In this document: piece after piece, positions 1,730 to 8,031 of the stretch
How the letters are laid out: each line of letters starts with the position of its first letter
Numbering within the stretch: position 1 is the first letter of the stretch
Virus record (IMG/VR): IMGVR_UViG_3300032030_002802
Coordinates: 64,001-128,000 of that record
Source of the DNA: a virus
Lineage: Duplodnaviria > Caudoviricetes
DNA: 64,000 nucleotides
Strand: one strand, 5' to 3'
Made by a program: the position numbers and the translations under genes
Notes under the pieces: generated by a model
Seen by the model: only the letters and a program-made list of their open reading frames with translations
Told to the model about the DNA's origin: nothing
The model's database searches: none

Positions 1730-2842
1730 TCACGAGAGCACCACGTCGTAGTGCTCGCGCATGTCCTCGCGCGACTCGTATACGGACAGCCTGCCACCGT
1801 CAAGCACGACGTACCCGCCCACGCGCACGCCTCCGAGGCCGGGTATGTTCAGCATCCCGCTCCGTGGGCATGTCGACCACTCCTCGCACGGGACATTCGC
1901 CAGCTCCAGTATGCGCGCCACCTCGGCTAGGTTGTCGAACGTCCAGATGGCCGGCGCGAGGTGGCGCCCCCGGATCTCGCATGCGAGGCACACCGCGTCC
2001 TTCCGGCACAGGCGGAGCAGCCCGTCACCCCGCATACTCCGCCTCCCGCACCGCGACGGTGACCCTGTCGACCGGCGTGACCCCGTCCTCCTGCATCCTG
2101 ATGGCAAGCTCGAACATCCCGTGACGCCGGATCCGCCGCAGCACGCCGAGGCGGTCCAGCCTGCGCCTGACGCGCCTGCCGCCTGGCCCGGCGACCGTCC
2201 TCGTCAGGTCTAGCACCGGTACGTCCAGGAACTTCGCACGCTCGAAGACGACGTCGGCGAGGTACTCCTCGCACTCGCGCCTTACCGGGAAGGCGCGGTA
2301 GCACCCGAAGTCCTCGTCGTAGTTGTCAAGCCACGCGGCGACGTACACCTTTTCCGGGGGCGGGTACCCTGGCGATGTCGTCGAGGCACATCCGGACGTC
2401 GTGCGTCCCGATCTCCTGCGCTTCGCCCCTGACGTAGGCTTCCCTGCCCCTTGCGATGATTTCGTCATACTTCAGCTCCTTGTCCGACTCAACCGTGACC
2501 CGGGACTCGACCGTCTCCGTCACGTGCACGGTGTACCTGTACTTCCGCCTGCTATTCCCGCGTCTTGCCATCGCCGCCCCCCTTCCTGCCCACCGCGGCC
2601 CAGACTGGGCCGTCGATGAGCCTGAGCACCGCCTCCAGCCGGTCGCGGTCGAGGACGGCCACCAGCGACTTCTCGTCGAGCGTCGAGTAGTGCAGCCCTC
2701 CCCGGAGCTCGCACTTGTGCAGGCACAGGCACGGCATCCCGTCGACCTCGTTGACCGACAGCGAGTATCTCCCGTCGTACGTCGCCCCGGCGGTCGTCAC
2801 GGTGCTGCTCGTGATCCTGCACCGGCGCTCCCCGTCAGCCAC
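1730..2842 (-). CDS. Cluster of about 4 small hypothetical genes (1730-2035, 2025-~2400, 2326-2571, 2552-2842)
   Basis: Overlapping stop/start junctions. Start of the second gene is uncertain. Confidence 0.55.
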
Positions 2843-3506
2843 GGCGTCCCGCTTTCCCGTCGATGCGCGCCCAGTGCGTGCATTCCTTGGCGCACTTCGG
2901 GCAGTGCAGCAGGTTCTCGTACACGTCGAACCGGCACCCCTCCCTCTCGTACTTGTGTATCTCCTGTCCGCACCGGTCGCAGTAGTACGCGTCCTTACCG
3001 TGGAAGCGCGCCTCGCGAGAGTGGCACTTGCCGTCCCACTCCTCGAGGATGTGGCTCACGACGGCCCACACCTCGTCGAGGTTGAGGATAGCCGGACCGA
3101 CCTTCATGCGCGTGATGTCGAGCCACTCGCGGTCTAGGTAGATCCAGTAGCCGTCAGCCGACCCGCTTCCGAGGATCGTCTCCGGGTTGCAGCACATGTC
3201 GTTGTAGATGTACCCGACCGTGCACTTCGCGAAGTTCGTGCGCACCTTCTCGTGCCAGTCGGCCACCGGGATCTTCGCGACGAGGTCGTTCGGGCCGTAG
3301 AACCCCCTGGAGTACAGGATGTCGCAGTACCCGAAGTACGTCCCGAACAGATTCAGGTAGGCGTCGTCCTTGCAGAGCCACCCGACGAGCGCCTTCTGCT
3401 CCGCCTTCTCCTGCTTGGAGTAGACGCGCTTTCCGCCACGCCACTGCGGGACAGACACGCCGAACTTCTCCTTGACCTGCGCGGCCAGCTCCCTCTCACT
3501 CGCCAT
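2835..3506 (-). CDS. Hypothetical protein with C-terminal Zn-ribbon
   Basis: CDRC...CPKC pairs; GGAGG RBS. Confidence 0.7.
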   Translation of the reverse strand: MASERELAAQVKEKFGVSVPQWRGGKRVYSKQEKAEQKALVGWLCKDDAYLNLFGTYFGYCDILYSRGFYGPNDLVAKIPVADWHEKVRTNFAKCTVGYIYNDMCCNPETILGSGSADGYWIYLDREWLDITRMKVGPAILNLDEVWAVVSHILEEWDGKCHSREARFHGKDAYYCDRCGQEIHKYEREGCRFDVYENLLHCPKCAKECTHWARIDGKAGRRG

Positions 3507-3774
3507 CGGACTGCCCTCCTCCCGTCAGGTGGCCCTGCACTGCGTCCACGAGCTTGCCGAACGTGTCGATTGACTCGGCCTCGTCCAGCTCGACCGAGAT
3601 GCCGTACTGCTCCTCCATCGCCATGACCAGCTCCACGCGGTCAAGCTCGTCCGCGCCGAGGTCCACCGTGAGCGACGCCTCGTCCGTCACCTGGTCCCGG
3701 CTCACGCCGAGCTGCTCGCATACTATCGCGCGCATCTCGTGCGCGAGTTCCTCTCTTGTCTTCTGCTTTGCCAT
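3496..3774 (-). CDS. acpP: Acyl carrier protein homologue; attachment Ser replaced by Glu
   Basis: IVCEQLGVSRDQVTDEASLTVDLGADELDRVELVMAMEEQYGI matches the ACP pattern (DLGADSLDxVELVMALEEEFGI) except S->E. Confidence 0.9.
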   Translation of the reverse strand: MAKQKTREELAHEMRAIVCEQLGVSRDQVTDEASLTVDLGADELDRVELVMAMEEQYGISVELDEAESIDTFGKLVDAVQGHLTGGGQSDGE

Positions 3775-3823
3775 TTCTTTTCCTTCTCTGCTGTTGTTGT
3801 CATGTTGTTGCCATAGCCTGCCG

Positions 3824-4680
3824 TCATTCCGGCCTCCCCCTTACAGGGTTGCTCCATTCGGACTCCCGCACGTGCATCCCGCGGAGCACCTTGCGGCCGA
3901 AGTCCACCACGCTCATGCGCGCGGCCCATGTCGGCGCTTCGCCGCCAGCCCATCTGGCCGCCCAGACGTCTCCGTCGAGCGGGCACCACCTGCCGCGGTG
4001 CTTGAGCAGCACGTCGAACCCGTCGGGGTCGTCGTCCAGTATGAACCTGCCGATGTCGCGCGGCAGGGAGACCGGCACCAGGTCGGGGTGCCTCTGCCCG
4101 AGCTTGCGGTACGGGGCCACGAAGTACAGTCTCTCAGAGCTTGCCGGCATTGCGCGCCTCCGCCCATTCCTCGTCGCGTATCGGGTCGCGGCCCCGCAGC
4201 TCGTTGTCCAGGTATTGCGCGAACGTGAGCAGCGCGCGCTCCTCGTTTACCGCCATCACCGGCATTTCGGCGAAGTGCGCGTAGGCGTCGCGGCCGTCTT
4301 TGTCCCGCACGACCAGCGCCGGCATGAACGTGTGCAGCCCGTCCGCGTCAGGCGGGCACGACCGCAGGTGCTCCATCTGCACCAGCAGGGCCGGCAGTTC
4401 GTCCGGGTCGTTCCGGCGTTTCGGGGCCTTCGGCCATGCCGGCTGTTGGATCTTCCTCTTTGCCATTTGCGTTCTCCGTTTGTTGCATCGTCTCTGGGGG
4501 GACCATGAGCGTCTTGCCCCTGGTCTGCTCGGCGAACAGGTACTGCAGCATCGCGTCGGCCTCGGCCGCGTTCTTCGCGCGGAACAGCAGGTCCAGCGGC
4601 TTCCTGTTCATGTGCGCCCGGTACAGCCCCCGCCCGTTGACGACGGGGGCCTTCTCCGGCCTGAACACTATCTCGGTCAT
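3824..4680 (-). CDS. Three small hypothetical genes (3824-4150, 4134-4466, 4348-4680)
   Basis: Coupled ORFs in the same operon. Confidence 0.55.
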
Positions 4681-5888
4681 CAGTCTGCCCAGAATCGGGT
4701 TGCGGAGCTGCTGCGCGTGTACGAGAGGAACTCCTGCTCCGTAACGCGGCGCTCGAGGTCCTGCACGATCCGGCGCATGTCGCCGGAGTTCTGCGCGCTC
4801 TCTTGCGCGAGGTCGACTCCGACGTACGTCGAGACCTGCGTGCCGGCGCCGTCCACCAGGCTCCCGCGGGTCACGCCGAGCTCCTTCTCGAGCTTCTCGA
4901 GCGTGAGGTCGTCGGTATCGGTCTTCCAGTCGCAGATGTAGTACAGCTTGCGGCTGTTCTTGATCAGGCCGAACAGGATCGGGTCGCGGCGCTTCTCTCG
5001 CTCTTTCTTCTCGGCCTCCGCGCTGACGGTCTCGGCGACGGCGGCGGCCTTCTGGATCATGTCGCTGTAGTGCGCGACGACGTAGTTGTCGAACACCATG
5101 AGCTTGTCGGCCGCCAGCTTCTTCTCGACGACCTCCTGCGGGATCTCGTCCTCGTAGTACCGGAGGAAGTCTACGACCGTCCCGCGCTCGGACTTGCGCA
5201 GGAAGTCTACCATCGTCTCCTCGGTGACGTACTCCGTGAACCCGGCCGCGCACACCGCCGCCTCCTCGACGAGGATGGTGCGGAGGGCCTTGACCGAGTC
5301 GGCCCGCTTGTACTGGCCGGCCGCGCGCATCCCCTCCTCGATCGACAGGATGTGGGCGAGGCGGACCTCCAGCTCGGGAGTGGACGTCAGCTCGATGTGC
5401 TGGAGCAGGTCGCCCATCGCCACGTGCACCGGCAGGATCTTCCGCTTCCTGCGGCTCAGCGCGTTCTTGAGCCTGTCCATCCACGTGAGTTCGCGGACGT
5501 ATTTGGCCTGCTTCAGCACGGCCTCGTTCACCTCGCGCTCGTGCTTCCCGCGGATGTCCCAGCGGTCGTCCTTGACCGCCTTGTCCATCGCCATGAGGGC
5601 CTTGGCCCTGGTGAACTCCTCCTCGTGCTCGGCGTCGGTCCTGTCCGGCATCTCGCGCCTGATGCGCTCCCGCAGCTCGTCGTCGGAGTAGTCGTTCCTG
5701 GAGATGTGCAGGTCGTTCTTGACGGCCTCCCACTCCTCCTTGAAGCGCTTCCACTTGGGGAGCTCGGTCTCGATGTTGAAGTCCTCGAGGACCCGCAGGC
5801 GGATCTTCCCGCCCACCTCTATCAGCGAGGGGTGGTCCTTGTCGGTCACCACCGTCTTCGCTTTCTTCTCCTTGGCCTGTTTCGCCAT
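4680..5888 (-). CDS. Uncharacterised phage protein, paralogue of 21446-22678
   Basis: 402 aa; AAGGAG RBS; shared FLRYY / FDNYVV / RRDPILFG / LYYxxDW / DDLTLE motifs. Confidence 0.85.
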   Translation of the reverse strand: MAKQAKEKKAKTVVTDKDHPSLIEVGGKIRLRVLEDFNIETELPKWKRFKEEWEAVKNDLHISRNDYSDDELRERIRREMPDRTDAEHEEEFTRAKALMAMDKAVKDDRWDIRGKHEREVNEAVLKQAKYVRELTWMDRLKNALSRRKRKILPVHVAMGDLLQHIELTSTPELEVRLAHILSIEEGMRAAGQYKRADSVKALRTILVEEAAVCAAGFTEYVTEETMVDFLRKSERGTVVDFLRYYEDEIPQEVVEKKLAADKLMVFDNYVVAHYSDMIQKAAAVAETVSAEAEKKEREKRRDPILFGLIKNSRKLYYICDWKTDTDDLTLEKLEKELGVTRGSLVDGAGTQVSTYVGVDLAQESAQNSGDMRRIVQDLERRVTEQEFLSYTRSSSATRFWAD

Positions 5889-5953
5889 TTCAGTCTCCTT
5901 GTCTCATTGCACTGCCTGTCCCGCGTCCGGCGTCAGGCGTCAGGCGTCAGGCG

Positions 5954-6505
5954 CTACCATCGCGTCACCCGCACCTCGGAGTAGTTTCGGAAGCGCAGCC
6001 TGACGATGGCCTTCGCGCACTCCACCGCGTTCCGCTCGCTGTCCCAGCGGTGCGTCATGGAGCCGACGCGGTAGCCCTCCCAGTCGGTCCGAGTGTCTAG
6101 CAGGTCGGCCGGCGTCACGCGGCGCCTGACGTCCATGCGGACGAGGCCGAACAGCGCGCCCGTGTCCGGTCCGCCCATCGTGACGGCCCCGTCCTCCAGG
6201 CGCAGCGACAGGCCGGTGAACCGTATCTCGCAGTACCAGTGGCGGGCGCCGACCGACACGCCCCTGAACGAGCTGGTCGATATCCTGACGGCGCGCGAGC
6301 CCGTGACCACCTCGTACCCGCCCGGGTGCCGCAGCCCGGCGAGCTCGTCGAAGTCGATGATCCGCGGCAGGTGGTCCATGCCGCACGTCACCAGCTCGGC
6401 CGGGTCGTGGAGGTCCGGGTTGTACCCGCTCATGCGGCACGCCTCGTCCAGGTCGATAGACCTCGGGTCGACCGTCCCGTCCTTGCGGAGCCTGTACTCG
6501 CTCAT
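5954..6505 (-). CDS. Hypothetical protein
   Basis: MSEYRLRKDG..., start overlaps the MTase stop (ATGA). Confidence 0.7.
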   Translation of the reverse strand: MSEYRLRKDGTVDPRSIDLDEACRMSGYNPDLHDPAELVTCGMDHLPRIIDFDELAGLRHPGGYEVVTGSRAVRISTSSFRGVSVGARHWYCEIRFTGLSLRLEDGAVTMGGPDTGALFGLVRMDVRRRVTPADLLDTRTDWEGYRVGSMTHRWDSERNAVECAKAIVRLRFRNYSEVRVTRW

Positions 6506-8031
6506 GCGGTCCCCCCTCCGGCCTTCCCCGTCAGCAGCCCGAGCGTGGACAGGCACAGCGCCTTGGCCGTCATGGCCGGCACGCTGTTCCCGACCTGCTT
6601 GGTCTGCTCGGTCTTGGTCCCGCACAGCACGAACCCGTCCGGCAGTGAGTGCGCGCGGGCCAGCTCCTTCGGCTTCAGCATCCGCATGTAGATGTCGATG
6701 CGCCGCCCGTCCTCCAGGACGGGCAGGGCCATCATGTGCTGGTCCTTCAGCGTCACCGTGTTCAGCGGCTGCCCCGCCCCGCGTATGATCCCGCCGTTCG
6801 CGTTGTCCACCACGATCGGCCGGAACATACGCATGCACGTCCTCACGCACGCCGTCGGTATCGGCCTGCTCGCGGGCCGGCACGTCGACCCGCCGTGCTG
6901 CCCGAGGACGAGCGTCGCGAGCGAGAAGTGGTCGTGCGTCGACACGGTCCTCATCGGCCTGTCCGGCGCGTACGCCTTCCCGTGGTTCTGGTGGTCGCAC
7001 ACGAGCGAGCAGACGGCGTGGTGCCCCCCGCCTGCGGATATCGTGGTGAGCGGGTCGTCCGCCGGCGCCACGGTGGCGTTGTGCCGCAGCTTCGCGATGA
7101 ACGGCCTGGCCTGCACCAGCGCGTGGTGGTTGCCGCCCGCCGTCACGGTCGTGAGCGGGTCGTCAACGTCCTCGGTCGTCGCGCCGCGGTTGAGCTTGAC
7201 GATGAACGGCTTGAGCGGCCGCTCCTTCCCGCACGCCCTCACGAGCATGTCGGTCGTGATGTCCAGCCCCCAGTACTTCCGGGCCCCTGCGGCGAGCCGC
7301 GCGAGCGTCTTCTCCTTGAGCGGGCGGTCGCGGCCGAAGATCGACTTGCCGAGGTCCGACAGGTCGAGGCACTCTCCGGCGCCTCGCCACTGCTTCCTGC
7401 CCGGCACGTGGTCGCCGTACGTCGGCTCCGGGAAACGCGGCGGCGGGAGGCCCACCTTCGTCGCGATGAGGAAGAACCTCCTCCGCGTGGTCGGGTCCCC
7501 GTAGTCCGCGCAGTTGAGGATGCGCCACTCGACCTGGTAGCCGAGCGACTCGATCATCTTCACCCACGCGCGGAACGCCTCTCCCTTGCGCTCCTTTATC
7601 GGCTTGCCCTCCTCGTCCAGCGGGCCCCACTCCGTGAACTCCGGGACGTTCTCGACGACAAGCGTCAGCACGTTGCAGTCGGAGAGCCACGTGGTCACGT
7701 AGGCGGGCTGCGAGCGGAGCTGGTCGTTCCTCGGTCGCCCGCCCGCCGCCCGGCTGTGGTGCGTGCAGCTCGGGCTCGCCCACAGCATGTGCACGGTGCC
7801 GTGCACGAGCTGGCCCGGCACGGCCTCCTCTATCTTGCAGTCGAGGGTGGTCACGTCCGGGAAGTTCGTCCGCATGGTCTTCACCGCGATCGCCCAGTGG
7901 TTGATCGCGAGGCCCGTGTATGTCAGGCGCAGCTCCTTCACCGCGTCGTGCATCCCGCTCATGTTCCCGCCGCACCCGCAGAACAGGTCGACGAAGTTGA
8001 CCTCGTCCCCCGGCAACAGCAGCGGCATCAT
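6502..8031 (-). CDS. dcm: DNA (cytosine-5) methyltransferase with repeated variable region
   Basis: Motif I FVDLFCGCGG, IV WASPSCT, VI ENVPEF, VIII TRRRFFL, X QVGNSV. Confidence 0.93.
   Translation of the reverse strand: MMPLLLPGDEVNFVDLFCGCGGNMSGMHDAVKELRLTYTGLAINHWAIAVKTMRTNFPDVTTLDCKIEEAVPGQLVHGTVHMLWASPSCTHHSRAAGGRPRNDQLRSQPAYVTTWLSDCNVLTLVVENVPEFTEWGPLDEEGKPIKERKGEAFRAWVKMIESLGYQVEWRILNCADYGDPTTRRRFFLIATKVGLPPPRFPEPTYGDHVPGRKQWRGAGECLDLSDLGKSIFGRDRPLKEKTLARLAAGARKYWGLDITTDMLVRACGKERPLKPFIVKLNRGATTEDVDDPLTTVTAGGNHHALVQARPFIAKLRHNATVAPADDPLTTISAGGGHHAVCSLVCDHQNHGKAYAPDRPMRTVSTHDHFSLATLVLGQHGGSTCRPASRPIPTACVRTCMRMFRPIVVDNANGGIIRGAGQPLNTVTLKDQHMMALPVLEDGRRIDIYMRMLKPKELARAHSLPDGFVLCGTKTEQTKQVGNSVPAMTAKALCLSTLGLLTGKAGGGTA

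Follow-up and report, generated by a model that had tools for sequence, protein, structure and literature searches.

A gene of an uncultured ruminant-gut phage encodes a small protein with the predicted fold of an acyl carrier protein (ACP) in which the serine that accepts the phosphopantetheine group is replaced by glutamate. The same glutamate is found throughout a clade of related phage sequences. Because the loading serine is glutamate, the protein most likely cannot carry acyl groups, having no canonical loading serine, and, as far as its sequence allows a reading, would act by binding other proteins non-covalently. The gene and its product, the distribution of the glutamate form, the genomic setting and the possible roles of the protein are described below.

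The gene and its product

The window analyzed here is the whole stretch of 64,000 nucleotides, which corresponds to bases 64001-128000 of a 199,078-bp virus record that is complete according to CheckV and has 65% G+C. An intact open reading frame at 3496..3774 (-) begins with an ATG start and encodes 92 amino acids, and a Shine-Dalgarno-like GAAGGA was read 6 nt 5' of this ATG (3781..3786, -). The product matched the Pfam profile PF00550 (PP-binding) with E=1.6e-11 and 44.7 bits over profile positions 3-67 of 67, against a curated cut-off of 20.8 bits. Its best PHROG match was PHROG 5934, 'acyl carrier protein' (E=2.1e-18), and 64 sequences of solved ACPs matched it at E<=1e-5, the best of these being bacterial AcpPs. 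In a phmmer alignment to E. coli AcpP, DLGAD-E-LD lay on DLGAD-S-LD, which placed Glu43 at the phosphopantetheine serine, Ser36 of E. coli AcpP. The codon for Glu43 is GAG (3646..3648, -), read as CTC on the plus strand at 3646-3648. The initial annotation of this DNA, made from the sequence alone, had described DLGAD-E-LD in an unbroken frame with a ribosome-binding site, and the ORF, the GAAGGA and the AcpP alignment all bear this out. It had also stated that at least two base changes separate a serine codon from GAG, and the genetic code confirms it; for AGC, the serine codon of the sister phages described below, the number is three. The protein has a pI of 4.2 and contains 22 Asp and Glu residues versus 7 Lys and Arg residues, for which the earlier wording of a 'negatively charged mimic' is fair.

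The structure of the 92-aa protein was predicted with AlphaFold2 (21 sequences, mean pLDDT 87). The model contained helices at residues 7-22, 43-57, 63-68 and 72-84, forming the predicted four-helix bundle of an ACP, in which helix II starts with the attachment residue, here Glu43. Helix II, the acidic recognition helix (residues 43-57, ELDRVELVMAMEEQY; 3604..3648, -; assigned by DSSP on the model), was whole in both the alignment and the model, in agreement with the earlier statement that the rest of this helix is intact. The best Foldseek matches were E. coli AcpP structures, with an rmsd of 0.8-0.9 Å over 73 residues, 45% identity and a TM score of 0.9 when normalised to the target. Further fold matches included complexes in which ACP is a structural subunit, namely MukBEF (9gm6) and Nfs1-ISD11-ACP (5wkp/8tvt). 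The Gly-rich C-terminal tail was predicted to be disordered (pLDDT <50).

Profile and fold are those of an ACP, and the conserved serine of the D-S-L motif is not: Glu43 stands in its place, and Glu is found at this site in all members of the clade. Because Glu replaces Ser at the D-S-L site, the protein would be a homologue with the ACP fold and not a functional carrier, for which the name 'acyl carrier protein' appears unfit. The initial claim that it is non-loadable at the canonical site is sustained to the extent that Glu43 takes the place of Ser in a conserved ACP fold, loading itself being judged by analogy. Six-frame profile searches of the 199-kb genome, each with a positive control that responded, returned no PPTase (PF01648), ketosynthase (PF00109) or AMP-binding (PF00501) domain. 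The 92-aa protein is an orphan ACP homologue, with no loading or acyl enzymes encoded by the phage. The PHROG 5934 match and the stand-alone gene, which has no FAS or PKS partners, agree with membership in the phage orphan ACPs.

Glutamate, serine and threonine forms in related phages

Relatives of the protein were gathered by a word-indexed protein search and an exhaustive search, in which a score gap separated a small family from cellular ACPs (121-146 vs. <=99 bits). Glu occupied the site in seven further distinct sequences, about 57-94% identical over the aligned parts: P0001 (93%), P0002 (63%), P0013 (58-60%), P0178, P0021, the copy in locus L015 and the fragment P0003. These sequences were drawn from ENA, JGI and Logan assemblies of separate ruminant-gut studies. 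The Glu codon was GAG in the window and in L002, L003 and L009, and GAA in the L005-L008, L015 and L004 loci. Among contigs of public runs, an independent bovine-gut strain, ~96% identical, carried C>T at 3646, a synonymous change from GAG to GAA, and a sheep-gut DNA run contained an exact match to the stretch. An assembly or sequencing error is ruled out by the agreement of contigs from 4 runs in 3 studies and by the 8 distinct Glu sequences. The initial annotation had named two outcomes that would undo its proposal, reads with Ser at the site or close relatives that keep Ser beside a decaying allele. Neither was found, as reads and contigs of independent studies show Glu and the close relatives hold Glu under purifying selection.

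Across a wider set of 75 carrier-type proteins of <=230 aa (exhaustive search, motif scan), the residue at the site was nearly always Ser. The non-Ser motifs among them comprised a few Glu, one Gly, one Thr and the first domains of two tandem proteins. The exhaustive search also recovered P0063, a 161-aa tandem protein of two ACP domains with DLGADELD (Glu) in domain 1 and DLGADSLD (Ser) in domain 2, which is a separate, unrelated instance of Glu at the attachment site.

The ORF was intact in seven of the eight Glu sequences. In the remaining copy, on a 500-bp ENA contig (L009), the frame is interrupted by a stop near codon 14, upstream of position 194, where MAVNRNELASQMR is followed by the stop and then by IVCES...; this stop could be a sequencing error or mark a single-strain pseudogene. 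The fragment P0003 is a chimeric ORF on a 676-bp ENA contig (L004; 82-339, 414-674). Over the first ~54 codons it is 94% identical to the phage ACP, with Glu encoded as GAA, and the remainder is the C-terminus of an Oscillospiraceae-type acpP followed by rnc, joined at a shared ELVMAMEE-coding stretch. The 3' part of the contig matches an Oscillospiraceae-type plsX-acpP-rnc locus, with 74% identity in RNase III. The join may have arisen during assembly or by genuine recombination. We rejected the contig as a host identification; it is the sole host hint (Oscillospiraceae) and, being chimeric, speaks for co-occurrence at best.

Selection on the gene was estimated from pairwise dN/dS (Nei-Gojobori with a codon bootstrap). 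In well-diverged pairs of the Glu clade (dS 0.74-0.86), the ACP gene showed a dN/dS of 0.37-0.45 with upper 95% bounds of 0.67-0.81, matched by 0.35-0.39 in the adjoining gene for a 223-aa protein. Conserved non-Ser homologues and their dN/dS had been proposed as the check on the earlier claim, and the comparison returned just such a clade within this range. A cellular acpP is expected to be far more constrained than a dN/dS of ~0.4. Between the window and L005, the DLGADELD codons differed by four synonymous changes (Gly, Ala, Glu, Leu) and by no amino-acid differences, and the DLGADELD.VEL block was invariant throughout the Glu clade, with only synonymous changes. From these codon comparisons, the Glu-form protein is kept by purifying selection, the Glu included. 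The window (3496-3774) and L003 (286-561) gave a dN of 0.27 and a dS of 0.21, a ratio of 1.3 (CI 0.72-2.55). Differences in this pair clustered in helix I, the loop after helix II and the tail, and the central 28 codons were almost identical even at synonymous sites, a pattern of either fast-evolving termini or a recombination mosaic.

Other related phages encode a syntenic ACP with a different residue at the site. Ser (codon AGC) was found in P0034 of L010, P0068 of L011-13 and P0177 of L022, and Thr (codon ACG) in P0117 of L014. By analogy, the Thr form is probably dead as well, because the S36T variant of E. coli ACP cannot be phosphopantetheinylated (PMC3340395). Maximum-likelihood analysis of the 223-aa protein grouped the Glu-form loci without exception in one clade (88/93 support), and the Ser forms, the Thr forms and the lineages lacking the ACP sat in other clades. 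This topology is consistent with one switch from Ser to Glu at the base of the clade, kept since. No ACP was found at this position in the related phages L016, L021, L023 and L026/27, so its function is dispensable. Between L010 and L014, dS was 1.67 for the ACP gene vs. 0.33 for the 223-aa gene; because the ACP is the more diverged of the two, the ACP cassette seems to have been exchanged among these phages.

In every phage with the Ser or Thr form, an ORF of 97-131 aa lies between the ACP gene and the 223-aa gene (L010, 509-904; L014, 10366-10659; L022, 3631-4014; L011, 560-808), and it is N-terminally shorter in the Thr-form phage. No Glu-form locus has this ORF, nor does it occur anywhere else in the 199-kb genome. 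Its loss coincides with the switch from Ser to Glu, a correlation that, as one event, is only suggestive, and the ORF may be a former partner of a working ACP. We also considered it as a small PPTase and rejected this, as Pfam, PHROG, PDB and Atlas searches gave no support and no conserved acidic catalytic motif was evident.

Genomic setting and the adjoining 223-aa gene

The ACP gene lies inside a long co-directional block, between two DNA methyltransferase genes, and this block is the early/replication operon of a ~199-kb uncultured ruminant-gut phage. Encoded here are a DNA polymerase A with N-terminal uracil-DNA-glycosylase-superfamily and 3'-5' exonuclease domains (13456-15753, -), a C5 DNA methylase (6502-8031, -), a 402-aa protein with a match to the PHROG 'transposase' phrog_10081 (4680-5888; E=8.2e-12) and an N6/N4 DNA methylase (615-1319, -). 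Two small ORFs stand between the 402-aa protein and the ACP, and five between the 223-aa protein and the N6/N4 methylase. The bracketing of the ACP block by N6/N4 and C5 methyltransferases suggests an anti-restriction or early region. The gene order was repeated in a 78-kb ENA contig (L002), with looser synteny in 71-kb and 194-kb contigs of more distant phages (L022, L014).

A scan of 2400-6100 found no promoters or terminators. The window contains no tRNAs, and the genome contains one tRNA-Ser. A megablast search with 12 kb returned no close phage relatives. No polymerase in the phage collection shared more than 26% identity with the DNA polymerase, which marks an uncultured and distant lineage. 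In two metatranscriptome libraries from one sheep sample, contigs covered the 223-aa gene and the 3' part of the ACP gene up to the Glu codon, which is a weak hint that the ACP region is transcribed, DNA carry-over being possible. Their lack of coverage over the 5' half of the ACP gene carries no weight.

The gene for the 223-aa protein, a conserved phage protein, lies directly downstream (2835..3506, -) and is translationally coupled to the ACP gene. The ACP stop and the start of the 223-aa gene are joined by an 11-nt overlap that is kept in all Glu-form loci. The ACP tail GGGQSDGE (3496-3522, -) encodes both the Shine-Dalgarno site of the 223-aa gene, GGAGGAGGG, which falls in the codons for GGGQ (3514..3522, -), and its ATG. 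Because the tail carries these translation signals, it is conserved at the DNA level.

The 223-aa protein has 12 Cys residues and a C-terminal four-Cys (CxxC...CxxC) zinc ribbon, and its AlphaFold2 model had a pLDDT of 88. We identified 22 homologues (41-83% identity) from animal-gut metagenomes, all strictly viral. The protein matched no Pfam or PHROG family, and a PDB sequence profile gave nothing convincing. Searches with the fold were similarly empty: the best Foldseek match in the PDB had E=1.4, ESM Atlas scores were <=0.85, and the best hit of a wide VIA-align search (Z 5.7) was helical and non-specific. No relatives were found in IMG/VR viral contigs or in 185,579 prokaryote genomes, so there are no prophage copies and no host assignment by this route. 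The 223-aa gene is present without an adjoining ACP in L016, L021, L023 and L026/27. The linkage between the ACP and the 223-aa protein is positional, and a complex prediction for the pair (alignments A6, A5) scored 0.01 against a mark of 0.32, a result that weighs neither way. In L023 and L027, the 223-aa gene lies close to a gene with a listed match to Pfam Gad2 (PF26128), and a homologue of this Gad2-listed protein was located outside the window at G000:C1:53194-53877, ~13.6 kb from the ACP gene (34-36% identity, E ~1e-33 to 1e-38).

Possible roles and relation to known systems

The explanation that we favor is mimicry of host ACP, an idea close to the mimic that, in the initial annotation, would titrate ACP partners. 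During infection, the serine-less protein would be made as a competitive look-alike of host ACP and would occupy the basic ACP-docking surface of at least one host ACP-client protein, with an acyltransferase, a FAS enzyme, AcpS or another ACP-dependent factor as candidate clients. Docking would then block or redirect these clients. We give this reading slightly less than an even chance; within it, we infer the binding to host ACP clients and the choice of client. To compete with the very abundant holo-ACP of the host, the protein would have to be highly expressed or aim at a target present in small amounts. Among the targets put forward in the initial annotation, MukB stands in part: it is confined to a limited set of proteobacteria, and the host hint here points to Oscillospiraceae. 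In its favor, apo-AcpP is accepted by MukB, the ATPase of which is activated by apo-AcpP as well as by holo-AcpP (PMC8602292). SpoT, also proposed there, reportedly does not bind apo-ACP (PMC3896788), which makes a SpoT decoy unlikely. As a precedent for activity of an ACP without its cofactor, apo-ACP inhibits the glycerol-3-phosphate acyltransferase and stops the growth of E. coli (PMC3896788).

Instead of a host protein, the partner could be a protein of the phage itself, for which the ACP homologue would serve as an adaptor or subunit, a small acidic structural cofactor, with the 223-aa zinc-ribbon protein or another protein as the candidate. AcpP is a structural cofactor for MukB, and ACP plays the same part in the mitochondrial Nfs1-ISD11 complex. 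Solved complexes with ACP as a subunit (9gm6, 5wkp/8tvt) were among the fold matches, and apo-AcpP is enough for MukB (PMC8602292). The 11-nt overlap and the Shine-Dalgarno site in the ACP tail, kept in every Glu-form locus, and the shared dN/dS of the two genes would also fit such a pair. We nevertheless regard it as unlikely, given that the 223-aa protein occurs without an adjoining ACP in the loci named above, that another ORF parts the two genes in the Ser/Thr sister phages and that the dS values of L010 and L014 (1.67 for the ACP vs. 0.33 for the 223-aa gene) are not those of one travelling unit. The gene might also be a relic, a working phage ACP that lost its Ser together with the small ORF and now drifts to loss, kept open mainly for the RBS and start of the next gene. 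The overlap of the ACP tail with the translation signals of the 223-aa gene is in line with this, as are the loose constraint (dN/dS 0.4-1.3), the premature stop in one copy (L009), the absence of the ACP in related phages and the disappearance from the whole genome of the 97-131-aa ORF of all Ser/Thr forms. Coupling, however, constrains only the last ~10 codons and not the core, in which the helix II motif, including Glu, gained only synonymous changes at a dS of ~0.8. With upper bounds of dN/dS below 1 in well-diverged pairs, like those of the neighbor gene, an intact ORF in 7/8 sequences and the Ser-to-Glu state fixed also in an unrelated cultured phage family, decay is a distinctly improbable account.

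Two further readings concern the charge and the chemistry of the protein. As a general acidic mimic, with a polyanion-like role in anti-restriction or anti-defense, it would use the ACP fold merely as a convenient scaffold. The pI of 4.2 and the 22 acidic versus 7 basic residues, the position of the gene between C5 and N6/N4 DNA methyltransferase genes, and the Gad2-listed (PF26128) gene in the same region of distant relatives, with its homologue ~13.6 kb away here, would agree with this role. All ACPs are this acidic, however, which makes the charge an inherited one; conservation falls precisely on the docking motif of ACP helix II, and the protein does not resemble any known DNA mimic. We consider this reading very unlikely. 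We find it scarcely credible that the protein has remained a carrier through modification of a different residue or through another group on Glu43. Nothing direct speaks for it; most members do keep Ser34 (Thr in P0002), but cellular ACPs (P0042, E. coli AcpP) also have this 'AS' pair ahead of the motif, and there it is not a loading site. We know of no PPTase that modifies Glu, and the phage genome has no PPTase of its own. In E. coli, a substitution as mild as S36T is enough to prevent modification (PMC3340395).

Mimicry of host ACP, the favored explanation, can be set against the proteins that the phage homologue most resembles. The closest of these is AcpP (PF00550), above all in its apo or S36T form. 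The phage homologue shares with AcpP the four-helix fold, the DLGAD-x-LD..VELVMA.EE docking motif of helix II and the same acidity. It differs from AcpP in having Glu for the loading Ser, and would thus never become a holo form, and in having a family-specific helix IV motif (TFGKLVD), a disordered Gly-rich tail and a dN/dS of ~0.4. Like the phage orphan ACPs of PHROG 5934, it is small and stand-alone, lies in an early or accessory region and has no FAS or PKS genes beside it. Nine of the ten other phage ACP matches inspected keep Ser, unlike the present clade, which has Glu. A glutamate at the site was also found in the 'putative acyl carrier protein' AYP28353.1 of Serratia phage vB_SmaA_3M (Ackermannviridae, Miltonvirus), with the motif DLWFDELD (DLWFDELDRIELIMELEE) and a kept helix II. 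This protein is only 29% identical to the one described here; its phage belongs to an unrelated family and infects a proteobacterium, and its gene has other surroundings in the genome. On sequence grounds, the Glu of the Serratia phage protein looks like an independent, convergent loss of serine. Within the literature searched, no description of phage-encoded serine-less ACPs was found. The clade is a presumably cofactor-dead, Glu-fixed form of the already known phage orphan ACP.

A broader and more tentative proposal, which we hold to be rather unlikely as it stands, is that serine-less ACPs form a recurrent, convergent class of phage effectors, mimics of a cofactor protein that would dock through helix II on a host ACP-dependent protein and disable or commandeer it during infection. 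Their targets could be a lipid-synthesis enzyme, an SMC/MukB-like complex or a defense factor that requires ACP. The rumen-phage clade, with its Glu after a Ser ancestor, and the Ackermannviridae protein would then be two independent origins of the class.

Phage ACPs are routinely annotated as auxiliary metabolic genes. For the Glu clade, which selection has kept although the carrier function appears genetically impossible, this annotation is very probably wrong, and the annotation of phage ACP function in general is possibly wrong too. The syntenic Ser, Thr and Glu forms offer a natural experiment on the role of phage ACPs. If the Glu form binds host ACP clients, it would be a small tool, simple to express, with which to probe or inhibit processes that depend on ACP, and it would represent phage mimicry of a protein cofactor rather than of DNA.
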